Source: an uncultured archaeon (GTDB lineage Archaea > Micrarchaeota > Micrarchaeia > Micrarchaeales > CABMGC01). Taken from it: a DNA stretch of 64,000 nt. Below the pieces are notes generated by a model. That model worked only from the letters and a program-made list of their open reading frames with translations, was not told the DNA's origin and did not search any database. Shown here piece by piece: positions 7,997 to 61,668 of this stretch. Position 1 is the first letter of the stretch. Each line of letters starts with the position of its first letter. Both the position numbers and the translations under genes were made by a program. The stretch lies in contig CAWBCT010000005.1 of assembly GCA_963787445.1 (NCBI GenBank), positions 595,143 to 659,142 on the forward strand, written 5' to 3'.

Positions 7997-10303
7997 TTAA
8001 AGCTCCTGGGCCACGGTAGCTCCGTGCTCCGCCTTCTCCCTGCTCAGCATGTATATCCTCGCATTAGAGACCCGCTTGAGCTGCTCGTCGTGCGTTATGA
8101 TGAACACCTGCCCCACCAGCTCGGGCAGCGTCTCGTTGAGCATGGTCACCAACTTGGAGAGCCCCTGCTGGTCTATGTTGTGCGTCGGCTCGTCCAGGAT
8201 CAGCCACTTCAGGTTCGGCACCAGCACCAGCGAGAAGGCTATCCTGAGCGCCATGCAGGCTATGCTGCGCTCCCCGCCGCTCGCTATCGAGTTGACGTTC
8301 TCCCAGGCGGGCTCGCCGTCCCTCAGGCTCTGCAGCTGCAGGGCGTAGTCGCTCTCGTTCGCATCAAGCATTATTCCCGTGTAATCGCCGTAGGGGTACA
8401 GCCTCGGCCACATCCCCTCCATTATCTGGTTTATGGCGCTCACCAGATGGCTGCGGAGCGCTCCCTGGGTCTCCTCCAGCGCATTCTTGAAGCGCGAGAG
8501 ATCGTCTATGGTGCCCTTCTTCTGGTTCAGCTCAGCGTACATCGCATCTATGCGCGCTATCTCTCCCTCCTTGTCCTTAATCTGGACCGTCTTCTCGTCA
8601 ATCGCATTCACGCTTGAGAACAGCAGCGCGCTTTTGCCCGATATCTGTGAACTAGCCTCGGTGTGCCTCTTCTGCAGCGCCTCAATCTTGGCGTTGTCAA
8701 CGACTAATCCCTTCATCTCCTTCTTCCTGAGTTCCAATGTCGCCGAGTAACGGTCCCGGTCTGCGACCTGCTTTGTAATCCTCTCCACATTCTCCCTGGA
8801 TGCCTTCAGTTTGGCAAGGTTTTCCGAGCCTTTTGTCACTGATTCCTCAACTGACGAAGCCGCGCTAGTAAGGGTTTTAATCTGATCGGAGAGTCTTGCA
8901 AGTTCCTTTGAAGCCCTCTCGCCATTAGCCTCAAGATCCCCGTAGGACTTGATCCTCTCAAGCGTCACCGTAAGGCTGTTCAGCTCCGCGGTAAGCTTTG
9001 CAACTTGCTCTCTCTTCTGAGTTCTCGAGGCTCCAAGAGTTGTTATTTTGGACGAGGAGTTCTTGATCACTTCCTGCCTGGATTTTACCAGCTCGGCATG
9101 CTTGTGTTCGCTTAGCTCACTGTCGCAGATTGGGCATTTGCTAATGTGCCTCCTTAGCTCATCGAGCGATTTTTCGGCCTCCTGCTTGAGCACTGCGCTG
9201 TGCGCGTACTCCTTTTCCATCGATTCCAACTCTTTGGTTATGCCGTCAAGCTGCACCTTTACCGTACTTTCCGATCTGCCCTTCATCTTCTCTTCTGCCA
9301 GCCGCTTCTCCTTCTTGTTCTTCTCTATGTCCTGAAGCTCCTTCTCCAGCTTGCCGATGTTTCCCTGTGTGCTCTGCAATAGGCTTAAATGTTCTGTACG
9401 CTTCTTTTTCAGTTCTGAGATGGAAGTGTTTGTGAAATTGATTTGCTTTTCCAGTTCTTCAACAGATGGCAGCGTCTTCCCGTCAACCGCGCCTATCTCC
9501 TTTTCGAGAATTCCGACCTTGCTCTCAAGCTCTCCGGTCTCCTTCTCCAGCTGTATCTTCTTTTCGTAGAGCTTCTTCAATGCTAACAGTTCAGTGCCCA
9601 TCTGGGTCTCAGCAGCTTTAAGCACCCTGAGCGCCTCCTCTGTAGCTACCTTCTCTTTTTCAAGTTTCGACAGCTCTTCCTTCATTTGAATATGCTGCTC
9701 CCTGAGTTTCTTGAGGTCGAAGCCCTTCGCCAGCTTCTCCGAGTCTGCGATCATCTCCTTTATCCTGTTTATCAGGCTTCCTGCGTTCTCCTGAGCCGCC
9801 GCGAAGCGGTCAAGGCCCAGCAGGTTGTCTATCTGCTTCTTCCGGTCCGACGCGCCTAGCTCCAGGAAGTAGTCTAGCCTGTTCTGCTCCGCGTATATCG
9901 CCCTTGCAAACAGGTCGTAGTCGACCTTCAGCACCTTCTCCACCTCCTCGGTGACCCGCTGCGGCTGGGACTGCACGTAAACGTCGTTCTTCTTGAAGGT
10001 CGCCTTGGCTGTCTCGTCAAGCGAGATGCTGCGCTCAACCGTGTACGGGATGCCGTCCACCTCGAACCCCAGCTTCACCCTGGCGCTGCGCTTCTGCTCC
10101 GGCTTGTTCCTGATGAGGTCCTCCACCTTGACGCGCCGGTTCTTTATCGCAGGAAAGGTGCCGAAGAAGCCGAACGAGATGGCGTCGAGTATGGAGCTCT
10201 TCCCGGCTCCCATCTGGCCGATGAGTATGTTGGTGCCGTTTGAGAAGCTGAGCGTCGTGAGGCCGTGGGCCTTCCAATTCTCGAGCTCTATGTAGTTTAT
10301 CAT
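7997..10303 (-). CDS. rad50: Rad50/SMC-family ATPase
   Basis: GQMGAGKSS Walker A, coiled coil with CPIC zinc hook, SGGE signature, LDEPT and ITHD. Confidence 0.88.
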   Translation of the reverse strand: MINYIELENWKAHGLTTLSFSNGTNILIGQMGAGKSSILDAISFGFFGTFPAIKNRRVKVEDLIRNKPEQKRSARVKLGFEVDGIPYTVERSISLDETAKATFKKNDVYVQSQPQRVTEEVEKVLKVDYDLFARAIYAEQNRLDYFLELGASDRKKQIDNLLGLDRFAAAQENAGSLINRIKEMIADSEKLAKGFDLKKLREQHIQMKEELSKLEKEKVATEEALRVLKAAETQMGTELLALKKLYEKKIQLEKETGELESKVGILEKEIGAVDGKTLPSVEELEKQINFTNTSISELKKKRTEHLSLLQSTQGNIGKLEKELQDIEKNKKEKRLAEEKMKGRSESTVKVQLDGITKELESMEKEYAHSAVLKQEAEKSLDELRRHISKCPICDSELSEHKHAELVKSRQEVIKNSSSKITTLGASRTQKREQVAKLTAELNSLTVTLERIKSYGDLEANGERASKELARLSDQIKTLTSAASSVEESVTKGSENLAKLKASRENVERITKQVADRDRYSATLELRKKEMKGLVVDNAKIEALQKRHTEASSQISGKSALLFSSVNAIDEKTVQIKDKEGEIARIDAMYAELNQKKGTIDDLSRFKNALEETQGALRSHLVSAINQIMEGMWPRLYPYGDYTGIMLDANESDYALQLQSLRDGEPAWENVNSIASGGERSIACMALRIAFSLVLVPNLKWLILDEPTHNIDQQGLSKLVTMLNETLPELVGQVFIITHDEQLKRVSNARIYMLSREKAEHGATVAQEL

Positions 10304-10423
10304 AGAACCATAGGAATTCCTGTTCTAAAGTATAAATTATCTTGCCTTTGAGCTTGGGAATGCCCTTCGGGGATAGTTATTTAAGATTGACCCCTGATAT
10401 ATAACTGAGTTATAGGTGGATGG

Positions 10424-10753
10424 ATGACTAGCGCGTATGAGACTGGGGAAAAGGAGATCCTGCCCGCGGTGCGCTACGCGCTCATCCAGGAGCTCAGCGA
10501 CAGGTACCACCAGAAGGAGGAGCAGATCGCGAAGGAGCTCGGGATAACCCAGGCTGCGATAAGCAAGTACCTTAACGGCAAGATCTCGGACAAGGTAAAG
10601 GGGATCTCCGACAAGCTGGACCGCAAGCTCATAGACATCTACGCCAAGAAGATAGCAGAAGGCGACCAGAGCATGGTAAACGCGTGCATCTGCACGGTCT
10701 GCAACAAGCTGAACGACTTCGGCTGCAAGTTCTCGCACGCCAAGTCCGTCTAG
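10424..10753 (+). CDS. HTH transcriptional regulator with Cys-rich C-terminus
   Basis: IAKELGITQAAISKYL HTH; CICTVC...GC; first gene of the suf operon. Confidence 0.8.
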   Translation: MTSAYETGEKEILPAVRYALIQELSDRYHQKEEQIAKELGITQAAISKYLNGKISDKVKGISDKLDRKLIDIYAKKIAEGDQSMVNACICTVCNKLNDFGCKFSHAKSV

Positions 10754-16325: not shown

Positions 16326-16665
16326 ATCACTCTGCTAAGAAACTCAATCTCCTTTTGAAAGTTTAGGAATAGGTTTCCGTCCATTTGGCAACAGCGCAAG
16401 CTACGCAAGAGCCTAAGGGCTCTCAGCTGCCAACCGCATTCCACTGGAACGGCATCGCCATCAATTCCTATTAATAAAATCAAATATATAAAACATTTGG
16501 TTAGACGAATCGGCCGCACCCTCGTCACCGGTTTCCCTTTTATTCTGCCCTGCGAGCACAGAGAACTGGAAAAGCTTAAATATCTCTGAATATATCCTAT
16601 TTAAGGGGAATGTAAAAGTGCCTGAGGTAGTCCGCCGGTGAGTGGGCAGCTCAGAGGTAGTTCTC

Positions 16666-18129
16666 ATGAACAAAATTCCGACAAAACCTGGCAAATACGC
16701 TGCGAATGGAAGGAGATGGGTAGGGGTAGCCTCATTTGAGGATAGGAAGAAGCCTGCAGAGGCCTCGATACCCAAGGTGGTTGTGACCCCGAACGGCAAT
16801 GCGATACTTTTTGAACGCCTTGCGAACGCCGTTAGGACAGGACCTGTCGGAAACGAGGCAGTGCTTTACGATAACGTAGGGGACCCTGTCCCTGAACAGC
16901 TATATTCTACTTTAGGAAACTATTCTGGCAAGCCACTGATAGTCACCAACCATAGGTTCGACAGCCTGAGGAATTATTCAGGAATGGCAGAGTACCTTGC
17001 GCATCCAGAGACCTTTGGAATAGCATCGGGCAGGAAGCCCAGCGGCCCGTGCCACTTCGGCCACAGGCTGGTGATAGACACCACAAGCTTCTTCCAGAGG
17101 AACAAGGTCCAGGTCTTTGTCCCGATAGCGGACAGCGAGGCCAGCCTTGACCGGAAGATCAAGAACAAGGCACAATACGAATACTTCATAGCAGACAACC
17201 TCCTGGACTGGGGTGCATCGGGTCTCGACCTTGATGCCGCGCACATCTATCTCCAATCGGAGGAGATGCGCGTGATGAACATAGGCTACGCGATGGCGCG
17301 TGGACTGGACCTGCCAGTAACTGTGGACGTTTATGGCAGGGACACTCTTGCTGACGAGATGAACTACCTTTTCGCAAGCATCGCCCAGGTGGGAGACATA
17401 CTGCTTCCGCAGCACCCGGACTTCGGGAAGAAGCACTCCTTCATGCTCTCCGGCGCCGATCAGGACGGGAACATGAAGATGACCATGGAACTAGCGTCCA
17501 GAGCCATGAGCGGCAAGGTGAGCGAATATGTCAGCACCGCGCCTTCTTCGTTATACATAACCTCCATCTCGAATCTTGAGGGTAAGAAGGAGAGCGCAAG
17601 CGAGCCCGACACAACGCTCTACCTGGGGCCTTCAAGGAGCCTATACCAGAAGACCGAGCAGGGCAAGATACTTGAAAGGATAGATAACCTGACGCTCTCT
17701 GATAGAATGCTCGACACTGATGAAAAGATTGACGGGTTTACCAAGAAAGACAAGGAAAAGGTGCTTGACGCCATCCGCAGGAGGCAGACGGTGTTTTCCG
17801 AATTTGCAGTAGATGATCTCAGCATAGATGGATTTAAGAGCATCATGAAAGAGGTACTCACTGCCCATCAAGAGAGGAGGAAAGAGGTCTATGAGTACGC
17901 GCTGTCAAGAGCTTTCCGGGACGCCGTTTCGAAACAAGACGCCAGAACAGCAGAAGCAGTGGTGGCCAATGGCATGCAAGTTCTGCCGGGTTTCAATGCA
18001 AGCAGAGTAAAAAGCAGCCCCTCTTTCTGGGAGACCCCAAATGAGGCATACATCCCTGAAGATAAGCGCAATGTCAGGACCCGATGGTTCAACATGGTCG
18101 CACGGATGGCAGGCCAGATAATGCCTTGA
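16666..18129 (+). CDS. Divergent tryptophanyl-tRNA synthetase paralog
   Basis: GRKPSGPCHFGH (HIGH), IADSEA, YLQSEE, QVGDILLPQ and GADQ; KMSKS replaced by KESAS; GAGGT RBS before ATG at 16666. Confidence 0.75.
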   Translation: MNKIPTKPGKYAANGRRWVGVASFEDRKKPAEASIPKVVVTPNGNAILFERLANAVRTGPVGNEAVLYDNVGDPVPEQLYSTLGNYSGKPLIVTNHRFDSLRNYSGMAEYLAHPETFGIASGRKPSGPCHFGHRLVIDTTSFFQRNKVQVFVPIADSEASLDRKIKNKAQYEYFIADNLLDWGASGLDLDAAHIYLQSEEMRVMNIGYAMARGLDLPVTVDVYGRDTLADEMNYLFASIAQVGDILLPQHPDFGKKHSFMLSGADQDGNMKMTMELASRAMSGKVSEYVSTAPSSLYITSISNLEGKKESASEPDTTLYLGPSRSLYQKTEQGKILERIDNLTLSDRMLDTDEKIDGFTKKDKEKVLDAIRRRQTVFSEFAVDDLSIDGFKSIMKEVLTAHQERRKEVYEYALSRAFRDAVSKQDARTAEAVVANGMQVLPGFNASRVKSSPSFWETPNEAYIPEDKRNVRTRWFNMVARMAGQIMP

Positions 18130-18141
18130 TGAGGTTTATTC

Positions 18142-19212
18142 ATGGAGTTCAAAACCAAGACTAACGGCGGCAGGGAAAACAGCGTTAGGCTGACCGATGT
18201 ATTGAATCAGAATCGCCTGGTGCACACGAGCCCCGGATCGGAGGGCCTTTCTCTAAGGATTGAGAAGTGCCAGGCTGAGAAGAGGCCGTTTAGGATGCTA
18301 TATGGCGAAACCTTCGACGGAAAGGGCAACCCTCTTGACAGCCTGAAGTATTACCTCTTCGTTAGTGCGCTTTCCAAGGCGATCAAGAGCAGCTATCAGG
18401 TTGATGTTGAGTCGACGATTCTGGTCGCAGACCTGGGCGTGTACAGAAACTATCCCGAGGAGGTCCAGGAGTACAAAAAGTACGCTGCAAGCCGGGAAGC
18501 CTTCGCCAGAAAGGTAAAGGAGGTGTACAAGTGCTCCTACGATGTCCGACTGATGAGCGAGATCTCAGACACGCCGGAGTTCAGACAGAGGTTCGGCAGG
18601 GTCAGCGAGATAAGCAACCTCGACGCGGAGCTCATGGGCATGATCCGCAAGAGCGTGCCAGAGGACAGGCTCGAAGCGGAGGCAAAGCGCGGTTACAAGT
18701 ATCCATTCGAAGAGATCGCCACAATACTGGGCCTGGACGTGAAGGTCGGGCCGCCGAGAGAGCAGCTCTATGATGACATAGCGAACTCCATGCTCCCCCA
18801 CTTCAACGTCAGCCCTCTGCTCCCGATCTATCTCACCCCCACTTATCCGGTCGGCACTAACTTTGCAGCCTACACGAGCTCTCCTGCAACCAAGCAGTAC
18901 GGCCTTACGCCCTATAAGGTTGGCAGCAGCGGGATGACCGCCCACAGGATCGTCCTAGGGGTAACCAGCGTGCAGGAGGCAAAGCGGCTCATAGACGAGA
19001 CACAGATCTCCTCGTCGGCCACGAAGCCGAACCCGGTTTGCGACATCCTTGTCCTGGCAGACCTCGCAAGACAGCACCTCGAAGGGGAGTTTGTTCAGAA
19101 GGATGTTGCAGACACTCTTGAGCTGTACTATAGAAACAGGATCCGCTCGCACCAGATCAAAGAGACCGCTTTCACGCATCTGCGCGACCATGTATTAAAT
19201 TATTTCGGCTGA
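18142..19212 (+). CDS. Class Ic aaRS-fold protein, TyrRS-like without HIGH (possible CDPS-like enzyme)
   Basis: ILVADLGVYRN and YPFEEIATILGLDVKVG parallel archaeal TyrRS ILLADLHAYLN and YPIMQVNDIHYLGVDVAVG; no HxGH. Confidence 0.5.
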   Translation: MEFKTKTNGGRENSVRLTDVLNQNRLVHTSPGSEGLSLRIEKCQAEKRPFRMLYGETFDGKGNPLDSLKYYLFVSALSKAIKSSYQVDVESTILVADLGVYRNYPEEVQEYKKYAASREAFARKVKEVYKCSYDVRLMSEISDTPEFRQRFGRVSEISNLDAELMGMIRKSVPEDRLEAEAKRGYKYPFEEIATILGLDVKVGPPREQLYDDIANSMLPHFNVSPLLPIYLTPTYPVGTNFAAYTSSPATKQYGLTPYKVGSSGMTAHRIVLGVTSVQEAKRLIDETQISSSATKPNPVCDILVLADLARQHLEGEFVQKDVADTLELYYRNRIRSHQIKETAFTHLRDHVLNYFG

Positions 19213-19216
19213 TCCG

Positions 19217-20338
19217 ATGGATGACCAGGAAGGAGCAAATCAAGGGGAACGAGTCGACCCATGGGGCAGCGAAGCGTTCACGAACCCGGACCAGGATTTT
19301 GCAGATTTCAAGATAGCCAAAATACCCTCCCATGCTCTTGAGTTCTTCAAGGGAAAGACCTTCCTGTTCGACCGCGGGTTGATAATCAGGCACAAGGATT
19401 TCGAGACCATACTACGGAGGATAGAACTTGGCGAGGATTTCCTGGTGATAAGCGGCTTTTCAAGCTCCGGGGAGCTCCACTATGGTCATAAGTCAGTCAT
19501 AGACATTTACAACTTCTTCCGCAAGTTCACAAAGGAGGGGCGATTTGCAATCTGCGATCTCGACGCCTATGTCAGCAGGTCGGACGAAAAGATTCCGGAC
19601 CTTGCCACTGCCAGGAAGTACGCCGTAGACAATGTGGCAGATGCGCTCGCCCTAGGAGTTCCCGAAGCGGACATACGGGTGCAGAGTAACCAGAGCCTTG
19701 ACTACCACAACTTCGTGCTTCAAATCTCAAAGAGCCTCTCCTTCAACACCATGAAGGCGGTGCTCGGACACTCTGACCTGGGCAAATTCACCGCAACATA
19801 TCTCCAGATAGCTGATATACTGTACCCACAGCTGGAACTGCACGGAGCCCACTCCCTGGTGCCCGTAGGCATAGACCAAGAACCGATACTAAGCCTGGCC
19901 CGGGACGTGGCCAAGAAGCTGAGGAAGAGCCACGGCTTCATCTCACCATCATCCTTGTACACCGCACACCTGCCCTCCCTAGTCAATATGAAGGACAAGA
20001 TGTCAAAGAGCGAGAAAGGCTCGGCACTGCTTCTAAACTCGACAGTGGCGGAGATCGACCAGACGATAGCCCACGCGACCACCGGCGGGAGGGACACCCT
20101 ACAGCAGCAGATCGAGCTAGGAGGCACCCCGGGCAACTGCCCCCTGTATTATCTTCACAGGTCAAACAACCCGGATACCGCAGCTGTAGCTGATATCTAC
20201 AGCAATTGCAAGTCAGGAAAGCTGATGTGCAAGGATGACAAAGCAGCACTGAAGGAGCTATTCAGGGCCAACGCCGCAGCCCACATCGAAAGAAGGGAGC
20301 GATTCATGGAAACCGCAAAGCGGATAGTTGCACGATAA
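19217..20338 (+). CDS. trpS: Tryptophanyl-tRNA synthetase (archaeal type) or close paralog
   Basis: VDPWG, HYGH, LQIADIL, VPVGIDQ, KMSKS and TTGGR...GG..C...C..G...C. Confidence 0.8.
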   Translation: MDDQEGANQGERVDPWGSEAFTNPDQDFADFKIAKIPSHALEFFKGKTFLFDRGLIIRHKDFETILRRIELGEDFLVISGFSSSGELHYGHKSVIDIYNFFRKFTKEGRFAICDLDAYVSRSDEKIPDLATARKYAVDNVADALALGVPEADIRVQSNQSLDYHNFVLQISKSLSFNTMKAVLGHSDLGKFTATYLQIADILYPQLELHGAHSLVPVGIDQEPILSLARDVAKKLRKSHGFISPSSLYTAHLPSLVNMKDKMSKSEKGSALLLNSTVAEIDQTIAHATTGGRDTLQQQIELGGTPGNCPLYYLHRSNNPDTAAVADIYSNCKSGKLMCKDDKAALKELFRANAAAHIERRERFMETAKRIVAR

Positions 20339-20357: not shown

Positions 20358-21053
20358 TTGGAGCTGAAAAACCTGCGCGAGAAACTGGACGTGACAAACC
20401 AGCGGATAATAACCAAGCTCAAGGACAGGTCACGGTTTCCCCTAAACCCGCCTGTTTACATCGCGGACGCAATACCAATAAAAGGCAGGCCCGGAATCTC
20501 ACTTCTGGAGTTTGCGCTGGAGGGGATAGAGGTCTACCACTCATCTTTGGGCAGGTATGATTATCACGACCAGTATCCTGTTTTCTCAAGAAAGCTGCCG
20601 GGAAGCCTGGTCGAAAGAGTGACCCCCCCGACTTCACTCCAGGAGGTGTCAATAACCATATCGACAGACCTGCTTTCCTACTACCAGCAGATGCTGCCCA
20701 GGCTATGCGATAAGAAAGAAGCTGACCCCACCACCTACGGCGAGACCGCCTACGTGGATGCCGACACCCTGCAGCTCATACACGAGAGGATAAACAGCAC
20801 CGGCCGCTATGTGGCTCAGGTCAAGCTTGAGCGGAACGGGAGCCTCAACGTCGACCACTCTGATGAAAAGAAGATCAGGGACCTTCTGAGGGATGCGAAG
20901 AGGGAGGGTGAAGTGATAGAAGAGGCCAAAAAACTGGCAGCAATGCAGGGACTTGAGCCTAACCTGATCGGAGAAGTGATCGGCTGGGTCATAGACAAAA
21001 CCCTCGAGGTGGAGGTCAAGTACATACAGAGGCTTGACGCCCCCAAAGCATAA
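20358..21053 (+). CDS. Chorismate mutase, eukaryotic (Aro7/AroQ-beta)-like
   Basis: LKNLR..L...RSRF...VY, SLLEFAL...H..LGRY, ERI..GRYVAQVK and EVEVKYIQRL follow the yeast Aro7 motif order. Confidence 0.75.
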   Translation: MELKNLREKLDVTNQRIITKLKDRSRFPLNPPVYIADAIPIKGRPGISLLEFALEGIEVYHSSLGRYDYHDQYPVFSRKLPGSLVERVTPPTSLQEVSITISTDLLSYYQQMLPRLCDKKEADPTTYGETAYVDADTLQLIHERINSTGRYVAQVKLERNGSLNVDHSDEKKIRDLLRDAKREGEVIEEAKKLAAMQGLEPNLIGEVIGWVIDKTLEVEVKYIQRLDAPKA

Positions 21054-21779: not shown

Positions 21780-21889
21780 GGAATATAAATATCGTAAATC
21801 GGGTTCTAAAAGAATTATGTAACCACAAACTAAACCTATTTTTATCACAATGTTATTAAATTCTTACGTTCTAGTTTAAACTTGAGTAA

Positions 21890-22861
21890 ATGAAAGAATA
21901 TCCACTAGATAAATTCCCTAATATAAATATGCGACCGGAAGTGGTTATTAAGCATAAAGAACATCTTGATGCACTCAAAGACGATATAATTGAGTATAGC
22001 AAAGTTGGCCATAGAGATACAATTATGTTTGATTGGCTACTCAGAGTTTTTGAGAATTTGGGTCTCTCAACAGTGAGAAAGGAATACTTAGATTCATTAG
22101 CTATAACAAAGACGCGGTTAGCTTTGTTTGTGGTATTGATTGATGATCCAGTCGACAATATCAAAAAGCGTAACTTTAAACTTTTCGAAGAACTTCTCAA
22201 GATCCCATTTAATCCCGAGCAAATAGATAAATCTCAATTTAATGTTCATGATGTTGAATATCTTGAATTTACAAAAAACTTGTGGACTGAGATCACAAAC
22301 GAGATTACAAAATATCCTGATCATAAGAGATATAAAGAAGCCTTTGAATTTGATATCAAACAACTTCTTAATTCTATGAGCTATAGCCGATTTGTAAATA
22401 CCTACCCTAATGCTATTAACTTGACTGAGAATGACGCTTACGTACATCATAGTATGATAGTTTTAATAGAAATGGACATTGATCTGATGTGCTCGCAAGG
22501 ATTTGATGAGCGTGAATTTGGAGCATTAAGAGAATTAGGTTACATCTCTCAAAAGATGGCGAAGATAGGTAATATTATAGGAACATATCCTCGAGAACTT
22601 ATTGAATCAGATATGTCCAGTAGAGCAGTGGTAAAATTTCTGACAGATAACGGCGCAGATTTTGGATTCAAATTAAATAAACTAATTAAAAAAGAAATGA
22701 GGTATCCCGAGTTCGAAAAAAACCTAACAGACGAATGGCAAAAGGAGTACTTACTAACTATCGATTTATCAAAAAGAATAAAATCAATTAATACACAAGA
22801 TTTCATAAAACAACTAGAATTCGTACAAAAAGCATACCAAATTAAAACTGACTATTGGTAA
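21890..22861 (+). CDS. Class I terpene synthase/isoprenoid-synthase-fold protein
   Basis: LIDDPVD (DDxxD) and GNIIGTYPRE (NSE/DTE-like); helical composition. Confidence 0.55.
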   Translation: MKEYPLDKFPNINMRPEVVIKHKEHLDALKDDIIEYSKVGHRDTIMFDWLLRVFENLGLSTVRKEYLDSLAITKTRLALFVVLIDDPVDNIKKRNFKLFEELLKIPFNPEQIDKSQFNVHDVEYLEFTKNLWTEITNEITKYPDHKRYKEAFEFDIKQLLNSMSYSRFVNTYPNAINLTENDAYVHHSMIVLIEMDIDLMCSQGFDEREFGALRELGYISQKMAKIGNIIGTYPRELIESDMSSRAVVKFLTDNGADFGFKLNKLIKKEMRYPEFEKNLTDEWQKEYLLTIDLSKRIKSINTQDFIKQLEFVQKAYQIKTDYW

Positions 22862-22880
22862 AATTTGTGCTGCTTAAATC

Positions 22881-23426
22881 TCATAATTGTTCTTCATAAA
22901 GAGACGGAAATCGTTCTTTCAGGTTTTTATTGCCATCAATAACTATCTTACAGACATTATTACTATTAGCTTGGTATTCTACTTCTATAGCATCAAAATC
23001 TCTATCCGTAATGGCAGATATTAAACCCGCAATAATACCGCGTAACAAGTGATCTATATTTCTATATTTTGTATTTTCAAATTCTTTTATTAAGAAAGAA
23101 TCTTCTAAGATTAATGTCCCAGTGGGGATTGTATTAGCATCTTCGTACTTTACATTCCCATAACCATATAAGTTTATAGTATTACAAATCCAGTTTTTAT
23201 CTGTTGACTGTGCAAACTCTGCTTTAAGATTTTGTTTGTATTCCAACATAGATTTTTTTGAAATTAAATAAAGTGTCTTTAATGACCCCAAATCATCATA
23301 CGCTTTACTTAAATATGCAGTTATACTTTGTGGCGGAAATATCAGAACATCTTGTCCATAAAGTGTTACTTTTCCATCTACAAATGTCATTTTTCTTGTT
23401 ATCATCAACATCTCAAAAAAGTTCAT
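22881..23426 (-). CDS. V4R-domain protein
   Basis: YGYG...RGIIAGLIS...AIEVE...CKIVI. Confidence 0.65.
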   Translation of the reverse strand: MNFFEMLMITRKMTFVDGKVTLYGQDVLIFPPQSITAYLSKAYDDLGSLKTLYLISKKSMLEYKQNLKAEFAQSTDKNWICNTINLYGYGNVKYEDANTIPTGTLILEDSFLIKEFENTKYRNIDHLLRGIIAGLISAITDRDFDAIEVEYQANSNNVCKIVIDGNKNLKERFPSLYEEQL

Positions 23427-23992
23427 TCGATGTCACCAAACCTTTTTGCTGCTAATTCAGGAAAATTTTCAAATAATTCTTTTTTAGAACCCCAATAGTA
23501 AACGCATACGTCATTACCCGAACATATACACTTTGTTTCTATAACATCTATATCCATATTGAATGTACCACTTGCAGATCCTGCAATAAGACCTTCAAAG
23601 ATAAAATCAGAAGGTTCTTTTATCCCTTTATTTTTAAGATAATCATGCATCGGAAGATCTTTTATATTCATAAATCCGCGTTTACCATTTTCATCTAAAA
23701 GTTGATATTTTACTAACCCCCAACCTCCGAAAGCACAATACTTAACCCATCTATCCAAAAAATCTTTAGGGGTTAGCATGTATTCCTTACCTAGTGGTCT
23801 AGAAAATTCTGCCATACCCTTTTTCATACACCCATACAATTCTCTTGCCTTTCTTGGCGTATTATTGATATCTATAGACAACATACCCACAAAATTTACT
23901 GGCAAAATCACTATCCGTTGTTTATCCATAGTTATTTTGCCAGGTTCTATATTAACTTCTTTAGCAAGCGAAAATTTTTCGAATATGTTCAT
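23423..23992 (-). CDS. V4R-domain protein
   Basis: GGWG...EGLIAG...VIETKCICSGNDVCVY, the typical V4R C-terminus. Confidence 0.75.
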   Translation of the reverse strand: MNIFEKFSLAKEVNIEPGKITMDKQRIVILPVNFVGMLSIDINNTPRKARELYGCMKKGMAEFSRPLGKEYMLTPKDFLDRWVKYCAFGGWGLVKYQLLDENGKRGFMNIKDLPMHDYLKNKGIKEPSDFIFEGLIAGSASGTFNMDIDVIETKCICSGNDVCVYYWGSKKELFENFPELAAKRFGDIE

Positions 23993-24068
23993 TAAATCGC
24001 CTTAACATCGTAATACGATATTACTTTATTAGAGCTAATAGTAGTTTTATTGGCTCTTGTTTACCATA

Positions 24069-24803
24069 TTATTTATAAACTTGTTCGGCAGGCTTTACAG
24101 ACATACCTATCTTACCAAACTCCAAGTCATGTACATATTGGCTATGGTCTGTATTTCTCATTTTCAAGATTGATAAAGTTCTGCTTCTCCTTGCACCTAT
24201 AAGTTGATTGTACATAACAACAAGACCGTCACACATGAACTCGCTAACACCATCTACTGTGAGGTGCTCCCCCCCATCTACTGAATCTGTTATTATCATA
24301 TTTGTTGTAGTAAGATCACTTAATTTATTTATTACCAAATAAGTTATACGCTTTTCAGAATCACCAGTATAAACTGTTTTATTTCTAGACCCGAGATAAC
24401 TAATTGGTATGGTGAATTGGTCTATATTTACTGAAAAAATCTCCAGACTATCAAAAACTAATCTTTTTGCATGAGTAGTATTTACTGCATCCTCTATGAT
24501 TTTAAAAAGATCAAGTTTAACTACATCCATTGGGATCGACAAAAACGTAATCTTACCTTGGCTTTCAAGACTATTCAAATCCCATCCAAATCTTTTTCCT
24601 TGTTCTTTCAGCATATCTGTATTAGATTCAAGAGATACATATAATCCATTTTCTCCAGCTAAAGCCCCACTGTAAAGATATTGCAACCCAAAAATGGTTT
24701 TACCAGTACCTGGTGCTCCAACCAGCAAGACATTGAAATTTTTTGGTACGCCCCCCTCTACAAGCTCATCGAAACCGGGAATGCCTGTCTTTACTCTTTC
24801 CAC
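24069..24803 (-). CDS. KaiC/RAD55-family ATPase (single domain)
   Basis: RVKTGIPGFDELVEGG, GAPGTGKT, RLVFDS and ILKMR. Confidence 0.9.
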   Translation of the reverse strand: MERVKTGIPGFDELVEGGVPKNFNVLLVGAPGTGKTIFGLQYLYSGALAGENGLYVSLESNTDMLKEQGKRFGWDLNSLESQGKITFLSIPMDVVKLDLFKIIEDAVNTTHAKRLVFDSLEIFSVNIDQFTIPISYLGSRNKTVYTGDSEKRITYLVINKLSDLTTTNMIITDSVDGGEHLTVDGVSEFMCDGLVVMYNQLIGARRSRTLSILKMRNTDHSQYVHDLEFGKIGMSVKPAEQVYK

Positions 24804-24934
24804 GTCAAAACCTCTAGCTAGTATCGGTATGGTATAGCAAACTATTTATGCATAACGCAGAAAACATAGTCACTTGCTGAAAGCAAAATTGTTATTGAAT
24901 TATAAACCTTTATTATGATGTATTAATTGAGTTT

Positions 24935-26038
24935 ATGACAACTACAAAATACTCAACACTATTTGAAGACCAAGCTTTTGGTATTCCAGGTTACATTTCT
25001 AAACAATTCCATGCTCTAGATAACAAAAAGTTCTTTATTAGAAATATATTCATACCAGAATCCTTTTTTGTAATACTTGAGCAGACCATAGTAGAAAACA
25101 AAGGAGACAAAAGAAAAAAGGAATTATACAGGATGGGAAAGCAATTTGGTTACCGATTTGCACTTCTTAATCGGTTTCCCAAAGGTAATATTAACAAAGT
25201 CACAATGCGTTCCGTGTTTGATTTCTTCCAAACAATCTACGCAAAGAAGATGACTACATTAAATATAGATTCCCAATTGAAGATGGTTGAACTAGAACTT
25301 GATGAATTCATAGTAACTTCCAAAGATGATATGGGTTATATGCCTATTGGAGCCGGCGCAGGTGCATGGTGTTACTTAAATGGTGATTATAATCTTGATT
25401 GTAGCACCCAAAAATTATCGAAGGGTAAGCATGTACTTTTATGTGCTAATAAAAAGATTCTTAAAGAACGGGGATTTGAAGTAATCGAATCTAAGCAAAT
25501 GCCAGAAAGTATTGATTTTAAGAGCTATATGGGCCATAACTTGCCACAAAAAGGTATGTTCAAATCATCAAGTTTTAGCCAGCTGCTTAAAACTGGAATT
25601 GCTTCGTATACACCTGGAATAATAAAATTAGAAAAATCAAATGAAAGGTTAATAGTACTTGAGATATCCATACTCTTTGATATAGAAAACACCTTTGATC
25701 AGAAGTTAATATCAGACTCTTCATATACGCCATTCTACAACATTGGACTTTCTCTAAAGGAAAAAGAAAAACCATACGATAGTCTCACCGAACTGCTTAG
25801 CGCCTTTGGATTTGGTATTGTACAGGTAACCGAAAAGAAAGATACGGTATCAGTCCTCTTTCATGGATATCCGTGGTTCTCAACAGAAACCGAGAAAACA
25901 AGTTTTGGTCTTATTAAAGGGGCTGTTCTTGGCTTCCTTAATGGTATTACTGAAAGAAAATATGAACTAAAATCTTTATCCTCAGAAGTTACGAATAACG
26001 TATTTGATGTATCCATGGAATTGGAAATCAAGGAGTAA
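24935..26038 (+). CDS. Tandem V4R-like domain protein
   Basis: Two repeats: LYRMGKQFG...AGAW and FYNIG...AFGFG...KGAVLGFLNG. Confidence 0.5.
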   Translation: MTTTKYSTLFEDQAFGIPGYISKQFHALDNKKFFIRNIFIPESFFVILEQTIVENKGDKRKKELYRMGKQFGYRFALLNRFPKGNINKVTMRSVFDFFQTIYAKKMTTLNIDSQLKMVELELDEFIVTSKDDMGYMPIGAGAGAWCYLNGDYNLDCSTQKLSKGKHVLLCANKKILKERGFEVIESKQMPESIDFKSYMGHNLPQKGMFKSSSFSQLLKTGIASYTPGIIKLEKSNERLIVLEISILFDIENTFDQKLISDSSYTPFYNIGLSLKEKEKPYDSLTELLSAFGFGIVQVTEKKDTVSVLFHGYPWFSTETEKTSFGLIKGAVLGFLNGITERKYELKSLSSEVTNNVFDVSMELEIKE

Positions 26039-27356
26039 TCGATATCATCTCATCTCCTTCATGCAGGCTACGCACTGCATCTAACTTCCTGCAGCACATG
26101 AACCCCGTAATAATATTGGTTATGACCAGCCTTCTTGCCCTTAATCCCTTTATAAGCCTCATCTCTTCCATTGCCTTGTCAAGGTCAATGCCCGTGAAAA
26201 CTGGCAGCAATAGCAAAGTCCCATCTGGCATACCGAATTCTCCCGAAATTATGTACTTGTTTACCGGATTCTCAGTTTCCTCAGTAATGCTGTTCCTTAG
26301 GGCGCTTCTGTGCTTGATAAACTCTGAATGGTTTATGTCCTCTAATAAGATGAGCGCAAAATACTTGATTGGCAGGTTTGCAAGGCTGATCGTAATCCTT
26401 CGTACAATGCCCTTGTCTACCAGCCTGTTGTAAGTATATCTCGCGCTGCCTGCCCCAAAGCGATTCTTTTCGTCTATCTCGGCAAAATCCATGCTCCCGT
26501 TGAAGTTAAGGTCCTTCAGGACCGCATGTTCCCTGTTGAGCAGCCTTGGCGACCCATCGCCGCGCTGAGCCTTGCCCCCTGCCTTACTCTTAAGAACCTC
26601 AAAGAACCCGTCTCTTAATGGTATAAAGCCATAGCCCATCGAGAACTGCGTAAGGTAGAACCTAAGGTTGCAGTCCGGGAAGAGCCTGTCCCTCAGCTCC
26701 GACGCCTGGGCTCTCATATCGCCATTTGCATCAAACAGGGCGTATACGAAGAGATCGTAGTCCCCTTGGGTCAGCAGCGCCAGCTGCACGCGGGGCTCAG
26801 CCTCAAGCTCCCTCTTCATGGTCCTGAGGTTGGGCACTTCATCCAGGAACTTGACCATTATGACATACTCCACGTAGCCGAGCTTCCCTAGGTCCGGCTC
26901 GAGGATGTAGCTTATGCCGTACTTCCTCTCCAGGTTCCTCCTGTGGGCCTCCAGCGTGGCCGGCTTGAGCCCCATCTTCTTGGCCATCTCTGCCAGCGTT
27001 AGCCTGCCATCGGCGCTTAAAGCGGAGATTATGGCGTTCTCGTGCTCCCTTGAGTACTCTCTATGGCGGTACTCCCTCCGTTCCGTGTCCTTTCTTGGTT
27101 TGGCGCTGAACTCCCTTTCTACCAGAGCTCCTCCAAGCTCCGCGTCCCGCCTTATGCCCGGTATGAACAGGCCCTCGATCGTAATCCTCCCTATGTACCT
27201 CGAGATGCCCCTGACCTTCTTCCTCTCCTTGTCCCATTTGCTCGTAGCCTCGTAGACGTAGCAGTGCTCGTTGATTATCTTTATGCTGAGGTACCTGTCG
27301 CTGTTCTTCTTGAGCTCTTCGTAGGTGGTTTGGACTTTTTCTGGAAGCTGTTGCAT
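26028..27356 (-). CDS. Lrp/AsnC-family regulator, duplicated, with extra N-terminal domain
   Basis: LSADGRLTLAEMAKKMG...LGKLGY...QGDYDL, then a second wHTH (LNFNGSMDFAEI...YNRLVDKGIV). Confidence 0.75.
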   Translation of the reverse strand: MQQLPEKVQTTYEELKKNSDRYLSIKIINEHCYVYEATSKWDKERKKVRGISRYIGRITIEGLFIPGIRRDAELGGALVEREFSAKPRKDTERREYRHREYSREHENAIISALSADGRLTLAEMAKKMGLKPATLEAHRRNLERKYGISYILEPDLGKLGYVEYVIMVKFLDEVPNLRTMKRELEAEPRVQLALLTQGDYDLFVYALFDANGDMRAQASELRDRLFPDCNLRFYLTQFSMGYGFIPLRDGFFEVLKSKAGGKAQRGDGSPRLLNREHAVLKDLNFNGSMDFAEIDEKNRFGAGSARYTYNRLVDKGIVRRITISLANLPIKYFALILLEDINHSEFIKHRSALRNSITEETENPVNKYIISGEFGMPDGTLLLLPVFTGIDLDKAMEEMRLIKGLRARRLVITNIITGFMCCRKLDAVRSLHEGDEMISITP

Positions 27357-27592: not shown

Positions 27593-28318
27593 ATGATAGA
27601 AATAAAAATTGGAAAAGGAACTTCGCAAGATGCAGAACGCTTAGTTGGTAGAGAAGCATTTCCAATAAGAGAACGCTCAAGCAACGGCGCTAATGGAAGT
27701 CACAGTACCCTGCTAGTTCTGGAAAGGAGAACTGGGGCTCTCGCTGATTCTGCTCGACCTTTGGCAGTCCTTCAAAGATCCGACGTACATAAGCTCACAG
27801 ATACGCAGATGGAAAGGCTCGACAAGCTTTGGTCCTACAACATCTCCCACATCACGCGTAAACTCGTGTCAAGAGGAGATGCCCCGCAGATCAAGGCAGA
27901 ACAACTTTATCCACTTGAGGCGATGTTGGGCAAGATAGATCTCGAGACCGCCAGGAGTTTTGAAGCAGAGTTCAAAAGATTCATGTCCATAATTCTGATC
28001 AAACCCGAAAACGTGAAAATTGTAGCACCTTCGAGGCCTGTAGACATGTATTGGCACTTGTTCGTACTAGACACGCGGGAATATCGTAAGTTCTGTGAGC
28101 AGGTGTTCGGAAGGTTCATAGATCATGTGCCGTCCAGTGACGCTAGAAGGCAGCATACAAGGGACGCATACGTGAGCACGCTGGATGCATACAATAAACT
28201 TTTCGGAGTTCCTGACGGAAGAATATGGCCCAAGCTCAGGGTTGAGGGCGCTAATTGCGGGACGGGTTCTGGACATTGCAGCGGTGGCCCCGATTGTAAT
28301 CAATGTAATGCAGGATGA
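27593..28318 (+). CDS. Glycine-rich-domain (GRDP/DUF1399-like) protein with Cys/Gly C-terminal tail
   Basis: PSRPVDMYWHLFVLDTREYRKFC...FIDHVP motif; tail CGTGSGHCSGGPDCNQCNAG. Confidence 0.65.
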   Translation: MIEIKIGKGTSQDAERLVGREAFPIRERSSNGANGSHSTLLVLERRTGALADSARPLAVLQRSDVHKLTDTQMERLDKLWSYNISHITRKLVSRGDAPQIKAEQLYPLEAMLGKIDLETARSFEAEFKRFMSIILIKPENVKIVAPSRPVDMYWHLFVLDTREYRKFCEQVFGRFIDHVPSSDARRQHTRDAYVSTLDAYNKLFGVPDGRIWPKLRVEGANCGTGSGHCSGGPDCNQCNAG

Positions 28319-28337: not shown

Positions 28338-28961
28338 ATGCCGTATGCACTAATTGGTAATAAAATGTCGGCAACTCGCGTGTCATTCAGATACTCATGG
28401 GTTTATGACCAGGTGTGGAAAAGGTTCTTACCCAAGAACTCGAAGGAAATGAATCAGTACCCCACTCCGAATCAAGTGAAGAGTCAAATGCTGGTGAAAG
28501 AGAAAGCTTGGCGAATACATGAGAAGGTAATAGTCAATGCCATACCTTCAATAACTGCTCTTAAATGGCAAGAAAAAGAAATCCGTTGCTACGTTGTGGG
28601 ATTTTGCAGGCCTTTCTCAGATCCCTTGACCATGATGCCGTACAAGTCTGATAAGATGTTCGTTGATGTGCTCACCCACGAGCTAATTCATCAGATACAA
28701 GTACAGAATTTAGACATGTCAAGAAACTTCAGAAAATGGTTAATTAAAAGATATCCAAACGAGTCAACAATAACTATTAATCATGTAGCATTATACGCAA
28801 TTTACGAAACGCTTTACCTAAAACTCTTCGGTAAGACGAGGTTGAAAGAGAGTTTGTCGAAGGTAAAGCTGCAAGAGTACTTAAGGGCGCTCGAGATAGT
28901 AAATCAAGAAGGATGTAGCGAGATTCTCTCCCGATTCATTAATTATGGGGCAAGTGAGTAA
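28338..28961 (+). CDS. HExxH metalloprotein/peptidase-like
   Basis: SDPLT...VLTHELIH...NH. Confidence 0.55.
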   Translation: MPYALIGNKMSATRVSFRYSWVYDQVWKRFLPKNSKEMNQYPTPNQVKSQMLVKEKAWRIHEKVIVNAIPSITALKWQEKEIRCYVVGFCRPFSDPLTMMPYKSDKMFVDVLTHELIHQIQVQNLDMSRNFRKWLIKRYPNESTITINHVALYAIYETLYLKLFGKTRLKESLSKVKLQEYLRALEIVNQEGCSEILSRFINYGASE

Positions 28962-29940: not shown

Positions 29941-30177
29941 TTGTCATCCATGGAAACTACGATACAAGTGCACAGAGGATTGAAGGACAAACTGGAAAAA
30001 CTGAAGATTCACCCCAGGGAATCCTACGAAAAGGTAATCGAAAGGCTAATTTCAAGCAAGATTGACCAGGAGCCCCTGTCCGCAGAGGAGATAAAAGATA
30101 TCGAAAAGTCATTGAAGGACATAAAAAATGGCAAGCTATACACTACCAAAGAAATGAGTGAAAAACTTGGGATATGA
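29941..30177 (+). CDS. Antitoxin (RelB-like)
   Basis: TTIQV...LEKLK..PRESYEKVIERL; overlaps the RelE gene. Confidence 0.75.
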   Translation: MSSMETTIQVHRGLKDKLEKLKIHPRESYEKVIERLISSKIDQEPLSAEEIKDIEKSLKDIKNGKLYTTKEMSEKLGI

Positions 30178-30431
30178 TGTATGAAGTCATATGGTCTGAA
30201 ACCTCCATTACCAACCTTCAAAGGTTAGATAAGTCTACGGAAAGGCGAATCAGAGACAAAGTCGAGTCTATAAAAGAGACACCCTTTAGCTTTGTGAAAG
30301 GACTGGAGGGAGTGCACCTTTACAGTCTTAGGGTTGGTGGATACAGGGTTATACTGGATATCGAACGCAAGAAGATGATAATTCTGGTCATGAGAATCGG
30401 GAACCGGAAAAGAATTTATGATAGTCTATAA
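30174..30431 (+). CDS. RelE/ParE-family toxin
   Basis: YEVIWS...YSLRVGGYRVI...IGNRKRIY. Confidence 0.88.
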   Translation: MMYEVIWSETSITNLQRLDKSTERRIRDKVESIKETPFSFVKGLEGVHLYSLRVGGYRVILDIERKKMIILVMRIGNRKRIYDSL

Positions 30432-32642: not shown

Positions 32643-32775
32643 GGGGTTGTGGCGTAACTTGGTAGCGCGGCAGCCTCCAGATGTTTATTGATTTGAGCCT
32701 CGGGCTGTGATGATGATCTGGAAAGACTAAATATGAAGTAAGCTGCATGTTCGGGTTCAAATCCCGGCAACCCCA
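32643..32775 (+). tRNA. tRNA-Trp(CCA) with 60-nt intron at 37/38 (32681-32740)
   Basis: Acceptor GGGGTTG/CAACCCC, anticodon stem GCAGC/GCTGC with CT-CCA-G, T arm GGTTCAAATCC. Confidence 0.9.
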
Positions 32776-42231: not shown

Positions 42232-42645
42232 TTAATCTAACAGCTTCATCAATTCCGGAGTTTTCCATATCCTGACTTTATTCTGTTTCTGGAAGTGTTT
42301 GTCATTGCTCCATATGCCACTGTTCTCCACCGATAATACAAGTGCTATATACGGCGTGTTGTCCGGGTCGATACTGTCCATTATTTCCTTAGCACCCTCA
42401 AAGTTATTCTTAATAATCGAATCGTCTACCACGTATATATTGCCAAATATCAATGCTAGCAGGCTATCCAAAGCTGTTTCTGAAATATTTGCCTTCTTCA
42501 ATATCTCTTTCATGTGCTCTTTCAATTCAGCCTTCGTGAAGCCCACCGTCAGAAATACAAATTTATCTGACATTAATATCTCTCTACTAGTTGAATCTTT
42601 GATTAAAGCGGCGATTATCCTGTTCGTATCCGCTATTAATATCAT
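42232..42645 (-). CDS. PIN-domain (VapC-like) toxin
   Basis: ADTNRIIAAL, DPDNTPY and WSNDKHF. Confidence 0.85.
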   Translation of the reverse strand: MILIADTNRIIAALIKDSTSREILMSDKFVFLTVGFTKAELKEHMKEILKKANISETALDSLLALIFGNIYVVDDSIIKNNFEGAKEIMDSIDPDNTPYIALVLSVENSGIWSNDKHFQKQNKVRIWKTPELMKLLD

Positions 42646-42958: not shown

Positions 42959-43525
42959 ATGCCTAACTTACTTCAGAAATTTAGAAAAGGAGAATACATT
43001 ACAGAGTACAGAACCGACGACGGCAGGATCGTTAGGTTCAGAGGTCCTAGAAAGAGTGATGTTAATGACATCCTTAAATTTATCAACGGACTTGTCGAAG
43101 AGGATGCGATGATATTGGTCGACAAGAAGAAGACAAGGAAAGAAGAAAACACCTATGTGAAAAGGGTAATCAAAGAGAATAAAGAGGGTTCAGCTTTGCA
43201 CCTAGTTGCTGAAGTTGATGGGAAAGTAGTGGCGAAAGCAGAAGTTCACAGGAAAAAGGATAAATCAAACCATGTCGGAACTCTGGGCATCTCCGTATCG
43301 AAGGGCTATAGGGACATTGAAATTGGAAAGACCATAATGAGACTCCTATCTGAACTTTCCAAAGAGCTTGGCCTCAGGCTTATAATCCTTGAAGCTTACG
43401 CGGAAAATAGCCGAGCAATACATGTCTACCAAAAATCAGGATTTAAGATAGTCGGACGCGTACCAAAAGACATACATTACAGAAACAAGTATGTTGACTC
43501 TGTGATTATGGTTAAGGAGCTATGA
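42959..43525 (+). CDS. GNAT acetyltransferase
   Basis: LGISVSKGYRDIEIG and NSRAIHVYQKSGF. Confidence 0.85.
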   Translation: MPNLLQKFRKGEYITEYRTDDGRIVRFRGPRKSDVNDILKFINGLVEEDAMILVDKKKTRKEENTYVKRVIKENKEGSALHLVAEVDGKVVAKAEVHRKKDKSNHVGTLGISVSKGYRDIEIGKTIMRLLSELSKELGLRLIILEAYAENSRAIHVYQKSGFKIVGRVPKDIHYRNKYVDSVIMVKEL

Positions 43526-61661: not shown

Positions 61662-61668
61662 GGATTTC

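Follow-up and report, generated by a model that had tools for sequence, protein, structure and literature searches.

What brings a terpene-synthase-like enzyme together with V4R-domain proteins and a KaiC-like ATPase in a short AT-rich island of a micrarchaeal contig, and is the enzyme the source of a signal or its target? The island lies at positions 21783-26038 of a 64,000-nucleotide stretch of contig CAWBCT010000005.1 (positions 595,143 to 659,142, forward strand; assembly GCA_963787445.1) from an uncultured archaeon of the Micrarchaeota, and the whole stretch is called here the window. A preliminary description of this DNA had proposed a horizontally acquired sender-receiver cassette, in which an isoprenoid product is sensed by the V4R proteins and relayed through KaiC. 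Based on sequence comparisons and predicted structures, we tentatively favour a different reading, which we hold to be a little short of probable: the island may carry a portable four-gene module that makes a terpenoid under signal control. The island contains five open reading frames (ORFs), encoding TS, V4Ra, V4Rb, KaiC and T367, at the places given in the preliminary description, and its features are as follows:

21783-21889, no strand: left boundary of the island and upstream region of the TS gene, AT-rich and non-coding, recognised by the drop in GC content
21890-22861, plus strand: terpene-synthase-like enzyme (TS), 323 residues, predicted class I terpenoid synthase fold (AlphaFold model, Foldseek, motifs)
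22881-23426, minus strand: V4Ra, V4R-domain protein of 181 residues (PF02830 match below the gathering threshold; joint profile)
23423-23992, minus strand: V4Rb, V4R-domain protein of 189 residues (PF02830 match below the gathering threshold; joint profile)
24069-24803, minus strand: KaiC, single-domain KaiC-like P-loop ATPase of 244 residues (PF06745, E = 7e-50)
24804-24934, no strand: divergent intergenic region between the KaiC-V4Rb-V4Ra unit and the T367 gene (gene arrangement and sequence)
24935-26038, plus strand: T367, tandem V4R/H-NOX/Bet3-like protein of 367 residues (predicted structure)

The genes of KaiC, V4Rb and V4Ra form a single leftward unit, in which the stop codon of V4Rb overlaps the start of V4Ra by 4 nucleotides. 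The TS gene converges on this unit across a 19-nucleotide gap, and the T367 gene diverges from that of KaiC.

The TS protein contains a DDPVD motif at residues 85-89 and a triad of N228, T232 and E236 within the segment IGNIIGTYPRE. The AlphaFold model of TS, calculated with 26 sequences (pLDDT 90.3, pTM 0.90), is all-alpha and comprises 14 helices. As in the bacterial and fungal class I terpene synthases (PF19086/PF03936), the model has a single alpha-domain of about 320 residues, approximately 325 columns of which can be aligned; the DDxxD motif is positioned at the end of a long helix (residues 64-89), and the N..T..E triad is located on a second long helix (residues 207-238). The PDB matches listed by Foldseek for the model are all class I terpene synthases or cyclases except for one heptaprenyl diphosphate synthase, and the matches are full-length, with TM-scores of 0.59-0.63 and a best E-value of 2.3e-4. 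The enzymes compared were ScCubS 10-epi-cubebol synthase (7zrn), BcBOT2 (8h6u), hydropyrene synthase (8b4l) and T-muurolol synthase (9hr0). Searches of PDB sequences returned no match for the single TS sequence and nothing meaningful for a 26-sequence profile. The best match of a 68-sequence profile was plant terpenoid synthase 18 (7bzb), and the alignment places DDPVD on VVDDTYD and the triad on LANDVGTYETE of the plant enzyme. Comparison with NCBIfam gave only a spurious sub-threshold match to PHA synthase, and the nearest TS clusters in a protein-language-model atlas include one named "Terpene synthase family protein". Because of the modelled fold, the structural matches, the motif alignment and the placement in the atlas, we assign TS to the class I terpenoid synthase fold and predict that its Mg-diphosphate site is intact. 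The DDxxD/NSE-like enzyme of the preliminary description thus stands, and its terpenoid-synthase fold, proposed as a check, is present in the model.

Both motifs are conserved in the relatives of TS, whose alignment contains an invariant DD within LIDDxVDN and an invariant GN...T..RE. Among 187 family members, 180 span both motifs, and DDxx(D/E) and (N/D)xxx(S/T)xxxE are kept together in 172 of these 180, including 40 of the 41 forms of at least 440 residues. At the level of single positions, 179 of the 180 relatives share D85 and likewise D86, D or E occupies position 89 in 178, and N228, T232 and E236 are kept in 176, 177 and 179, respectively. Residues R214, R235 and D241 are counted as invariant residues of the family's own (R214 is kept in 177 and R235 in 173 of the 180). 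Bacterial terpene synthases have a diphosphate-sensor arginine and a C-terminal RY pair located about 80 residues past the triad. In the TS family, an RY pair is found only in the close, Micrarchaeota-type clade, near residue 272, which is about 45 residues past the triad and within a stretch of lower model confidence. TS further differs from the solved terpene synthases in its sequence identity of 8-14%, in the missing Pfam match, and in its NxxxTxxxE triad, which is devoid of the second-position Asp of the canonical motif.

A word-index search with TS identified 38 proteins including TS itself; 33 of the 37 others are 51-66% identical to it, and those named by their sources are attributed to Micrarchaeota. 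An exhaustive search extended the family to 541 clusters at 50% identity (E <= 1e-3), distributed among DPANN-type archaea, bacteria of the candidate phyla radiation (CPR) and haloarchaea. The relative P0041 scores 19.4 bits for PF19086, the gathering threshold of which is 23.7. Judged from these searches, the family is outside the coverage of present curated models.

Long relatives of TS carry additional domains. DXS/transketolase-type domains precede the TS domain in 17 of the 34 long relatives sampled (P0090, P0115, P0129, P0082 and thirteen more); fusions of this kind, with a C-terminal TS-like domain, were seen in many bacterial relatives. The DXS part of P0090 is a true DXS (706 bits, cut-off 466). 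In several of the fusions, nothing beyond the transketolase C-terminal domain can still be recognised, a sign that they may contain degenerate DXS halves. PilZ-TS fusions were found in three of the 34 proteins and a receiver domain (REC) in the order REC-PilZ-TS in one; a geranylgeranyl-reductase family domain and DHBP synthase occur in one protein each, and eleven have no extra recognised domain. Apparent long TS reading frames in high-GC haloarchaeal loci have no extra Pfam domains, and these greedy ORF calls are unreliable.

The association of TS with the V4R and KaiC proteins recurs in other genomes. A genome scan provided 47 TS loci, of which nine are close (TS identity above 50%), eight are bacterial and thirty are distant archaeal ones; neighbouring genes were called mechanically as stop-to-stop ORFs and identified with jackhmmer. 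V4Ra and V4Rb directly follow TS on the opposite strand in six of the nine close loci (L002, L003, L005, L006, L007 and L009). KaiC is present in five of the six, and the contig of the sixth (L007) stops right after V4Rb. In L002, L003 and L006 the KaiC gene is found on the far side of V4Rb, which is also the arrangement of the window; in L005 and L009 it immediately precedes TS on the same strand, at distances of 3 and 13 nucleotides. The four genes are kept at 35-60% protein identity in five to six other genomes, with different flanks in each: FtsY/SRP54, prefoldin and eIF6; a type IV ATPase; a NUDIX protein and a PEP-utilising enzyme; Fic; or CDP-archaeol synthase. Since the flanking genes vary among the genomes, TS, V4Ra, V4Rb and KaiC constitute a portable, self-contained module. 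The preliminary description had named a synthase-V4R/KaiC link that is not repeated elsewhere as grounds for abandoning its proposal; the synteny of V4Ra/V4Rb in six and KaiC in five of nine close loci leaves the link in place. Apart from TS, the conserved module encodes no protein that could act as an output, DNA-binding or otherwise, and no secretion or export gene and no transporter is conserved beside it. In L009, from a metagenome-assembled genome (MAG) of Micrarchaeota, a CDP-archaeol synthase gene (CarS; 10192-10689, minus strand) is located directly beside V4Rb, so that the module has an enzyme of membrane-lipid synthesis as its neighbour.

V4Ra is a paralog of V4Rb, with 26% sequence identity (E = 6e-15). 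The two V4R proteins of the preliminary description were recovered by matches to PF02830, both below the gathering threshold, and by a joint V4Ra/V4Rb profile, the sole match of which among PDB sequences is MJ1460 (2osd/2oso, E = 2.5e-5). Precomputed database annotation assigns PF02830 to V4Rb and to seven of its 25 homologs. The V4Rb subfamily is small, with these 25 homologs, named by their sources "predicted hydrocarbon binding protein" or "4-vinyl reductase". At least 11 of the 25 are encoded on contigs equal in size to TS-bearing ones, and the locus tags in one MAG place TS and V4Rb at a distance of two genes. Residues E152, C155, C157 and C163 of V4Rb are invariant in 25 sequences; V4Ra has lost most of the cysteine cluster, and only the glutamate and the last of the cysteines are left in it. 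According to a section of PMC5847659, a cluster of three cysteines is characteristic of V4R and also of the phenol sensors PoxR and MopR. V4Rb thus resembles the V4R sensor domains of MJ1460 and of MopR/PoxR (XylR/DmpR type) in having the three cysteines and the glutamate. Unlike the V4R domains of sigma-54 activators, V4Ra and V4Rb are not N-terminal domains of larger proteins, but stand-alone proteins of about 185 residues that occur as an obligate pair.

KaiC matches PF06745 with 169.9 bits (cut-off 26.6), in agreement with the preliminary description. It contains the Walker A motif GAPGTGKT and the Walker B motif LVFDS; GxPGxGK(T/S) and the Walker B aspartate are kept in all six orthologs. 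The protein scores below the cut-offs of all NCBIfam KaiC models, including the archaeal equivalogs. An identity as the circadian two-domain KaiC was rejected, as the protein has a single domain and reaches 124.8 of the required 408 bits for NF006799 and 98.6 of 546 for TIGR02655. KaiC-like ATPases are proposed as archaeal signalling hubs in a part of PMC5847659 that cites Makarova, Galperin and Koonin 2017. The KaiC of the island resembles archaeal single-domain KaiC-like ATPases in its PF06745 domain, its Walker motifs and its position beside genes of putative sensor proteins, and differs from the archaeal hub ATPases in being coupled to the gene of a biosynthetic enzyme.

Distant relatives of TS are encoded beside signalling genes of other types. 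The gene directly downstream of TS encodes, in all eight bacterial loci, a histidine kinase that begins with a seven-transmembrane (7TM) region. The loci are mostly from CPR bacteria; five of them belong to Saccharibacteria, Berkelbacteria, Paceibacterota or a Lysobacteraceae-labelled MAG contig, and three are unclassified. A short-chain-type prenyl diphosphate synthase is encoded within 2.2 kb of TS in six of the eight, and in L017 and L018 an isopentenyl diphosphate (IPP) isomerase, scoring above its NCBIfam cut-off, lies between the prenyl diphosphate synthase and TS. Compact same-strand operons were observed in CPR and unclassified bacteria, namely in L012 (6781-10493), L013 (90-3751), L017 (6192-10543) and L018 (1458-5348), in the order prenyl diphosphate synthase, IPP isomerase (L017, L018) or a UPF0047 gene (L013), TS-like enzyme and 7TM histidine kinase. 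With the DXS and geranylgeranyl-reductase fusions, these neighbours repeatedly connect the TS family to enzymes of isoprenoid-precursor supply. In the Lysobacteraceae-labelled contig (L011, 2073-3709), the 7TM kinase is divided into three ORFs, one with the 7TM region and two with pieces of the kinase, and may be a pseudogene or the result of sequencing errors. No receiver gene was found near TS in the eight bacterial loci.

Six of the thirty distant archaeal loci have a kinase or a receiver next to TS or fused with it:

L015: PAS kinase
L016: REC-PAS
L020: REC-TS fusion with an adjacent PAS kinase
L022: PAS kinase
L023: receiver-containing ORF
L029: hybrid kinase

In two further loci of the thirty (L044 and L045), a KaiC-domain gene adjoins TS. 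These counts include closely related haloarchaeal species and are not independent. In a maximum-likelihood tree of TS, which is unrooted, the clade linked to V4R and KaiC (10 rows, support 100/100) is joined by the eight bacterial rows linked to 7TM kinases (18 rows, 100/99). Because these two clades group together, a signalling neighbour was kept and its type exchanged on either rooting. The tie of the wider family to signalling proteins is borne out by the recurring fusions, kinases, receivers and PilZ domains. The family resembles enzymes controlled by two-component or cyclic di-GMP systems in that TS relatives occur as REC-TS, REC-PilZ-TS and PilZ-TS proteins or beside histidine kinases; according to a portion of PMC5847659, both bacteria and archaea have metabolic enzymes that carry REC domains. 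The module of the island differs from such systems, since it has V4R and KaiC proteins instead of REC, PilZ and histidine kinase. The context of signalling genes also distinguishes the TS family from class I terpene synthases encoded in clusters with tailoring enzymes.

Based on these comparisons, a mechanism can be proposed for the module. TS would ionise a prenyl diphosphate, probably of C15-C20 by analogy with the short-chain synthases encoded beside its bacterial relatives, and form a hydrophobic product. V4Ra and V4Rb may act as a heteromer that senses a small hydrophobic ligand, most plausibly the substrate or product of TS, or else an outside lipid cue. KaiC would convert the occupancy of the sensor into an ATP-dependent change of state, and TS would be the controlled output. 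If so, V4R and KaiC fill the role that 7TM and PAS histidine kinases, receivers and PilZ domains have for other TS relatives. We prefer the direction from sensor to enzyme because TS is on the receiving side of signals in the REC-TS and PilZ-TS fusions, because KaiC is joined to TS at the operon level in two genomes, and because the conserved module has no other output protein.

Several observations weigh against this proposal. TS has no Pfam match at E <= 0.01, and the cut-offs of PF19086, PF03936 and PF06330 are unmet; its structural matches are moderate (TM-scores of 0.59-0.63), with E-values of only about 1e-4, and its closest sequence link to a solved terpene synthase, 7bzb, is marginal (E = 0.0051). 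PF02830 matches V4Ra with 18.2 bits (E = 2.7e-3) and V4Rb with 25.2 bits (E = 1.7e-5), both short of the gathering threshold of 31. KaiC proteins have two catalytic glutamates, and the KaiC of the island has a single acidic residue at this position. No V4R or KaiC gene is present in the visible flanks of three of the nine close loci (L001, L004 and L008); TS is less than 400 nucleotides from the contig end in L004 and L008, so that the hidden part is the upstream side alone. These three loci are from MAGs labelled Nitrosopumilaceae, and their TS sequences are nested within the Micrarchaeota-type clade, which could reflect mis-binning or transfer into another phylum. There is no adjacent signalling gene in 22 of the thirty distant archaeal loci, mostly from Natrinema, Natrialba and Halobellus. 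The receiver-less bacterial kinases fit a kinase that senses the product and a kinase that controls TS equally well.

The composition of the island sets it apart from its surroundings. Its GC content is 0.329, that of the whole window 0.508, and in the profile, values of 0.52-0.57 give way to 0.29-0.36 from about 21750 to about 26000. The lowest other stretch of 4256 nucleotides in the window has a GC content of 0.473, and the mean of such stretches is 0.521 (standard deviation 0.018). At third codon positions, the GC content (GC3) of the five island genes is 0.23-0.30, compared with a mean of 0.668 (standard deviation 0.099, minimum 0.437) for 50 other genes of the window. The abrupt AT-rich shift over five genes in the preliminary description, and the GC and codon profile proposed as a check of it, are confirmed by these values. 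The left edge is sharp: AT-rich DNA starts directly after the likely ATG (around 21782) of the GC-rich neighbour on the minus strand, and the boundary region contains no repeat, tRNA or integrase. There is no tRNA within 6 kb of the island and no recombinase or integrase among the neighbouring genes, and the only flanking direct repeats are short, two-copy and at chance level. An Rfam scan of the island found no RNA family. Scans with bacterial-type models, which are ill-suited to archaea, gave 18 promoters and one terminator, compared with 19.2 and 4.0 expected from shuffled sequences.

In two other genomes the module likewise stands out by its low GC content, which is 0.37-0.38 in L003 (surroundings about 0.50) and 0.33-0.39 in L009 (surroundings 0.52-0.57). 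The deviation is mild in L006 and L007 and absent in L005, and L002 is indeterminate. The horizontal acquisition proposed in the preliminary description is therefore upheld in part: the composition is foreign and the same module occupies other chromosomal contexts, but an integrase, tRNA and flanking repeat are missing. The module probably arrived by lateral transfer from a low-GC donor, and the gene of T367 would be an accessory that was either carried along or inserted next to it.

T367 has no Pfam match, and ten homologs were found. Its predicted structure (pLDDT 83.3) consists of two alpha/beta halves, and Foldseek matched it to the sensor domains of MopR and PoxR, H-NOX, TRAPP Bet3 and BcsD, with E-values from 1.5e-4 and target TM-scores of about 0.5. 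The C-terminal half aligns weakly to a V4R profile in hhalign (E = 1e-3, probability 22%); BLASTP similarity to V4Rb is not significant, and that to V4Ra has an E-value of 0.009. Neighbours in the atlas are hypothetical proteins of DPANN and one cluster with V4R in 12% of its members. The GC3 of the gene, 0.30, is island-like. Membership of T367 in the module was rejected, as neither tblastn nor a family HMM found a homolog in the 47 loci, and none of the ten homologs is encoded on a contig equal in size to TS-bearing ones. Of the tandem V4R-like protein in the preliminary description, the V4R/H-NOX/Bet3-like fold is retained by the model and the place in a conserved cassette is lost; T367 is an accessory passenger of island composition outside the conserved module.

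The gene to the right of the island has a host-like GC content of 0.518:

26028-27356, minus strand: Lrp/AsnC-type regulator of 442 residues (HTH_24 and AsnC-type HTH domains)

A homolog of this regulator with 32% identity adjoins KaiC in one of the six module-bearing loci (L002). The regulator is a possible, unproven partner of the module.

A prenyl diphosphate supply is encoded elsewhere in the window:

61588-62568, plus strand: polyprenyl diphosphate synthase (PF00348, E = 3.8e-40)

This synthase scores below the cut-offs of all NCBIfam chain-length models and has native composition. It is flanked by genes of a UbiA-type prenyltransferase (59811-60704, with weak MenA-like matches) and a UbiE/COQ5-type methyltransferase (62570-63274). 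Since the window encodes these proteins 36 kb away from the island, a prenyl diphosphate pool is plausible, and the polyprenyl diphosphate synthase is a possible supplier of the TS substrate. The segment 59811-63274 resembles part of a quinone pathway, in a genome with DPANN-like island genes.

The sender-receiver direction is a serious rival of the signal-controlled synthase, although we consider it unlikely. According to it, a diffusible isoprenoid made by TS is bound by the V4R proteins and relayed by KaiC to an outside output, such as the Lrp regulator; its use in quorum or host sensing is speculation. Solved V4R-type domains sense small hydrophobic aromatics (MopR and PoxR with phenols), the source names of V4Rb relatives refer to hydrocarbon binding, and the 7TM kinases that follow TS in every bacterial locus with no receiver nearby are arranged as expected of a producer and its receptor. 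The proposal of KaiC ATPases as archaeal signalling hubs, as worded in that part of PMC5847659, also fits a relay, and an Lrp-type regulator stands beside the module both here and in L002. However, that neighbour is found in just one of the six module-bearing loci, TS is the only conserved protein that could serve as an output, the enzyme has the position of a recipient of signals in the REC-TS and PilZ-TS fusions, and no secretion or export gene is conserved beside the module. Of the cassette in the preliminary description, the synthase fold, the recurrence of V4R and KaiC, the foreign composition and the tie of the family to signalling hold, whereas the membership of T367 does not, and marks of mobility are missing. 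The control of TS by a sensor and the sensing of its product could be combined in a feedback loop.

The V4R proteins might instead be carriers or chaperones of a prenyl substrate or product, with KaiC driving assembly or extraction by means of ATP, so that the island would be a metabolic module. The V4R domain was named after BchJ, which is discussed as a substrate carrier. The strict pairing of two V4R paralogs with an enzyme, the CDP-archaeol synthase gene beside V4Rb in L009, and the match of the T367 model to Bet3 structures with covalently bound palmitate would suit such a role. It leaves the pairing of TS relatives with histidine kinases, receivers and PilZ domains unexplained, no transporter is conserved nearby, and the KaiC family is described as signalling ATPases in the relevant section of PMC5847659; we regard it as quite improbable. 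Functionally unlinked genes gathered by chance in AT-rich foreign DNA, or in an anti-virus defence island, would account for the deviating composition, for T367 as an unlinked passenger, and for the toxin-antitoxin-type genes elsewhere in the window, which encode a ParE-type toxin domain (30174-30431, plus strand) and a PIN_2 domain (42232-42645, minus strand, GC 0.379). This explanation is very improbable, because it is contradicted by the conserved synteny of the same four genes in five to six other genomes with different flanks and by the PADLOC result for the island proteins, which consists at best of weak P-loop matches to KaiC (E = 1.9e-4, 19 bits).

The remaining genes of the window include those of an archaeal histone, eRF1, L10e, IF5A and an archaeal-type PheRS, and show it to be archaeal. 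The relatives of the island genes and of the Lrp regulator point to a Micrarchaeota-type organism. A GNAT acetyltransferase gene (42959-43525, GC 0.407) lies close to the PIN_2 gene, and the two low-GC genes may be further small foreign patches. Genes of class I Trp/Tyr-type tRNA synthetases (495 and 373 residues) are located at 16642-20338 on either side of a 356-residue ORF, the sole match of which is a weak one to DUF155, and a protein of 231 residues that ends in a chorismate mutase type II domain is encoded at 20358-21053. To the right of the Lrp regulator, two plus-strand ORFs (27593-28318 and 28338-28961) are without significant family matches and have intermediate GC contents of 0.48 and 0.40; the first has a Cys/Gly-rich tail. 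A third tRNA (32643-32775, plus strand) was found by Rfam, and ARAGORN was silent on it; it probably contains an intron, because it spans 133 nucleotides.

The component superfamilies of the module are already known. Neither their combination nor the systematic pairing with signalling genes was found in print: a literature search, which did not cover Makarova, Galperin and Koonin 2017, did not find the TS family, its signalling pairing or the combination of TS, V4R and KaiC. The family, with its 541 clusters, is a large class I terpene-synthase-fold family missed by curated models, and it is concentrated in haloarchaea and in lineages considered biosynthetically poor, the DPANN-type archaea and CPR bacteria. 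Its neighbourhoods and fusions link terpenoid synthesis with dedicated signalling parts, namely 7TM and PAS kinases, receivers, PilZ domains, and KaiC with V4R. The module offers a concrete enzyme partner for archaeal KaiC-like ATPases and stand-alone V4R proteins, and makes the idea of KaiC as a signalling hub testable with four small soluble proteins. We speculate, as a distinctly unlikely extension, that the TS family makes a terpenoid signal of ultra-small, host-dependent DPANN and CPR organisms, the receptor of which is encoded next door: the 7TM kinase in CPR bacteria, and V4R acting on KaiC in Micrarchaeota. If true, prokaryotes would have a terpenoid autoinducer or host-communication system of a new class, and both the input and the output of an archaeal KaiC-like signalling ATPase would be defined for the first time. 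The product, should it serve episymbionts as a signal or a membrane modulator, would bear on the interaction of such organisms with their hosts.

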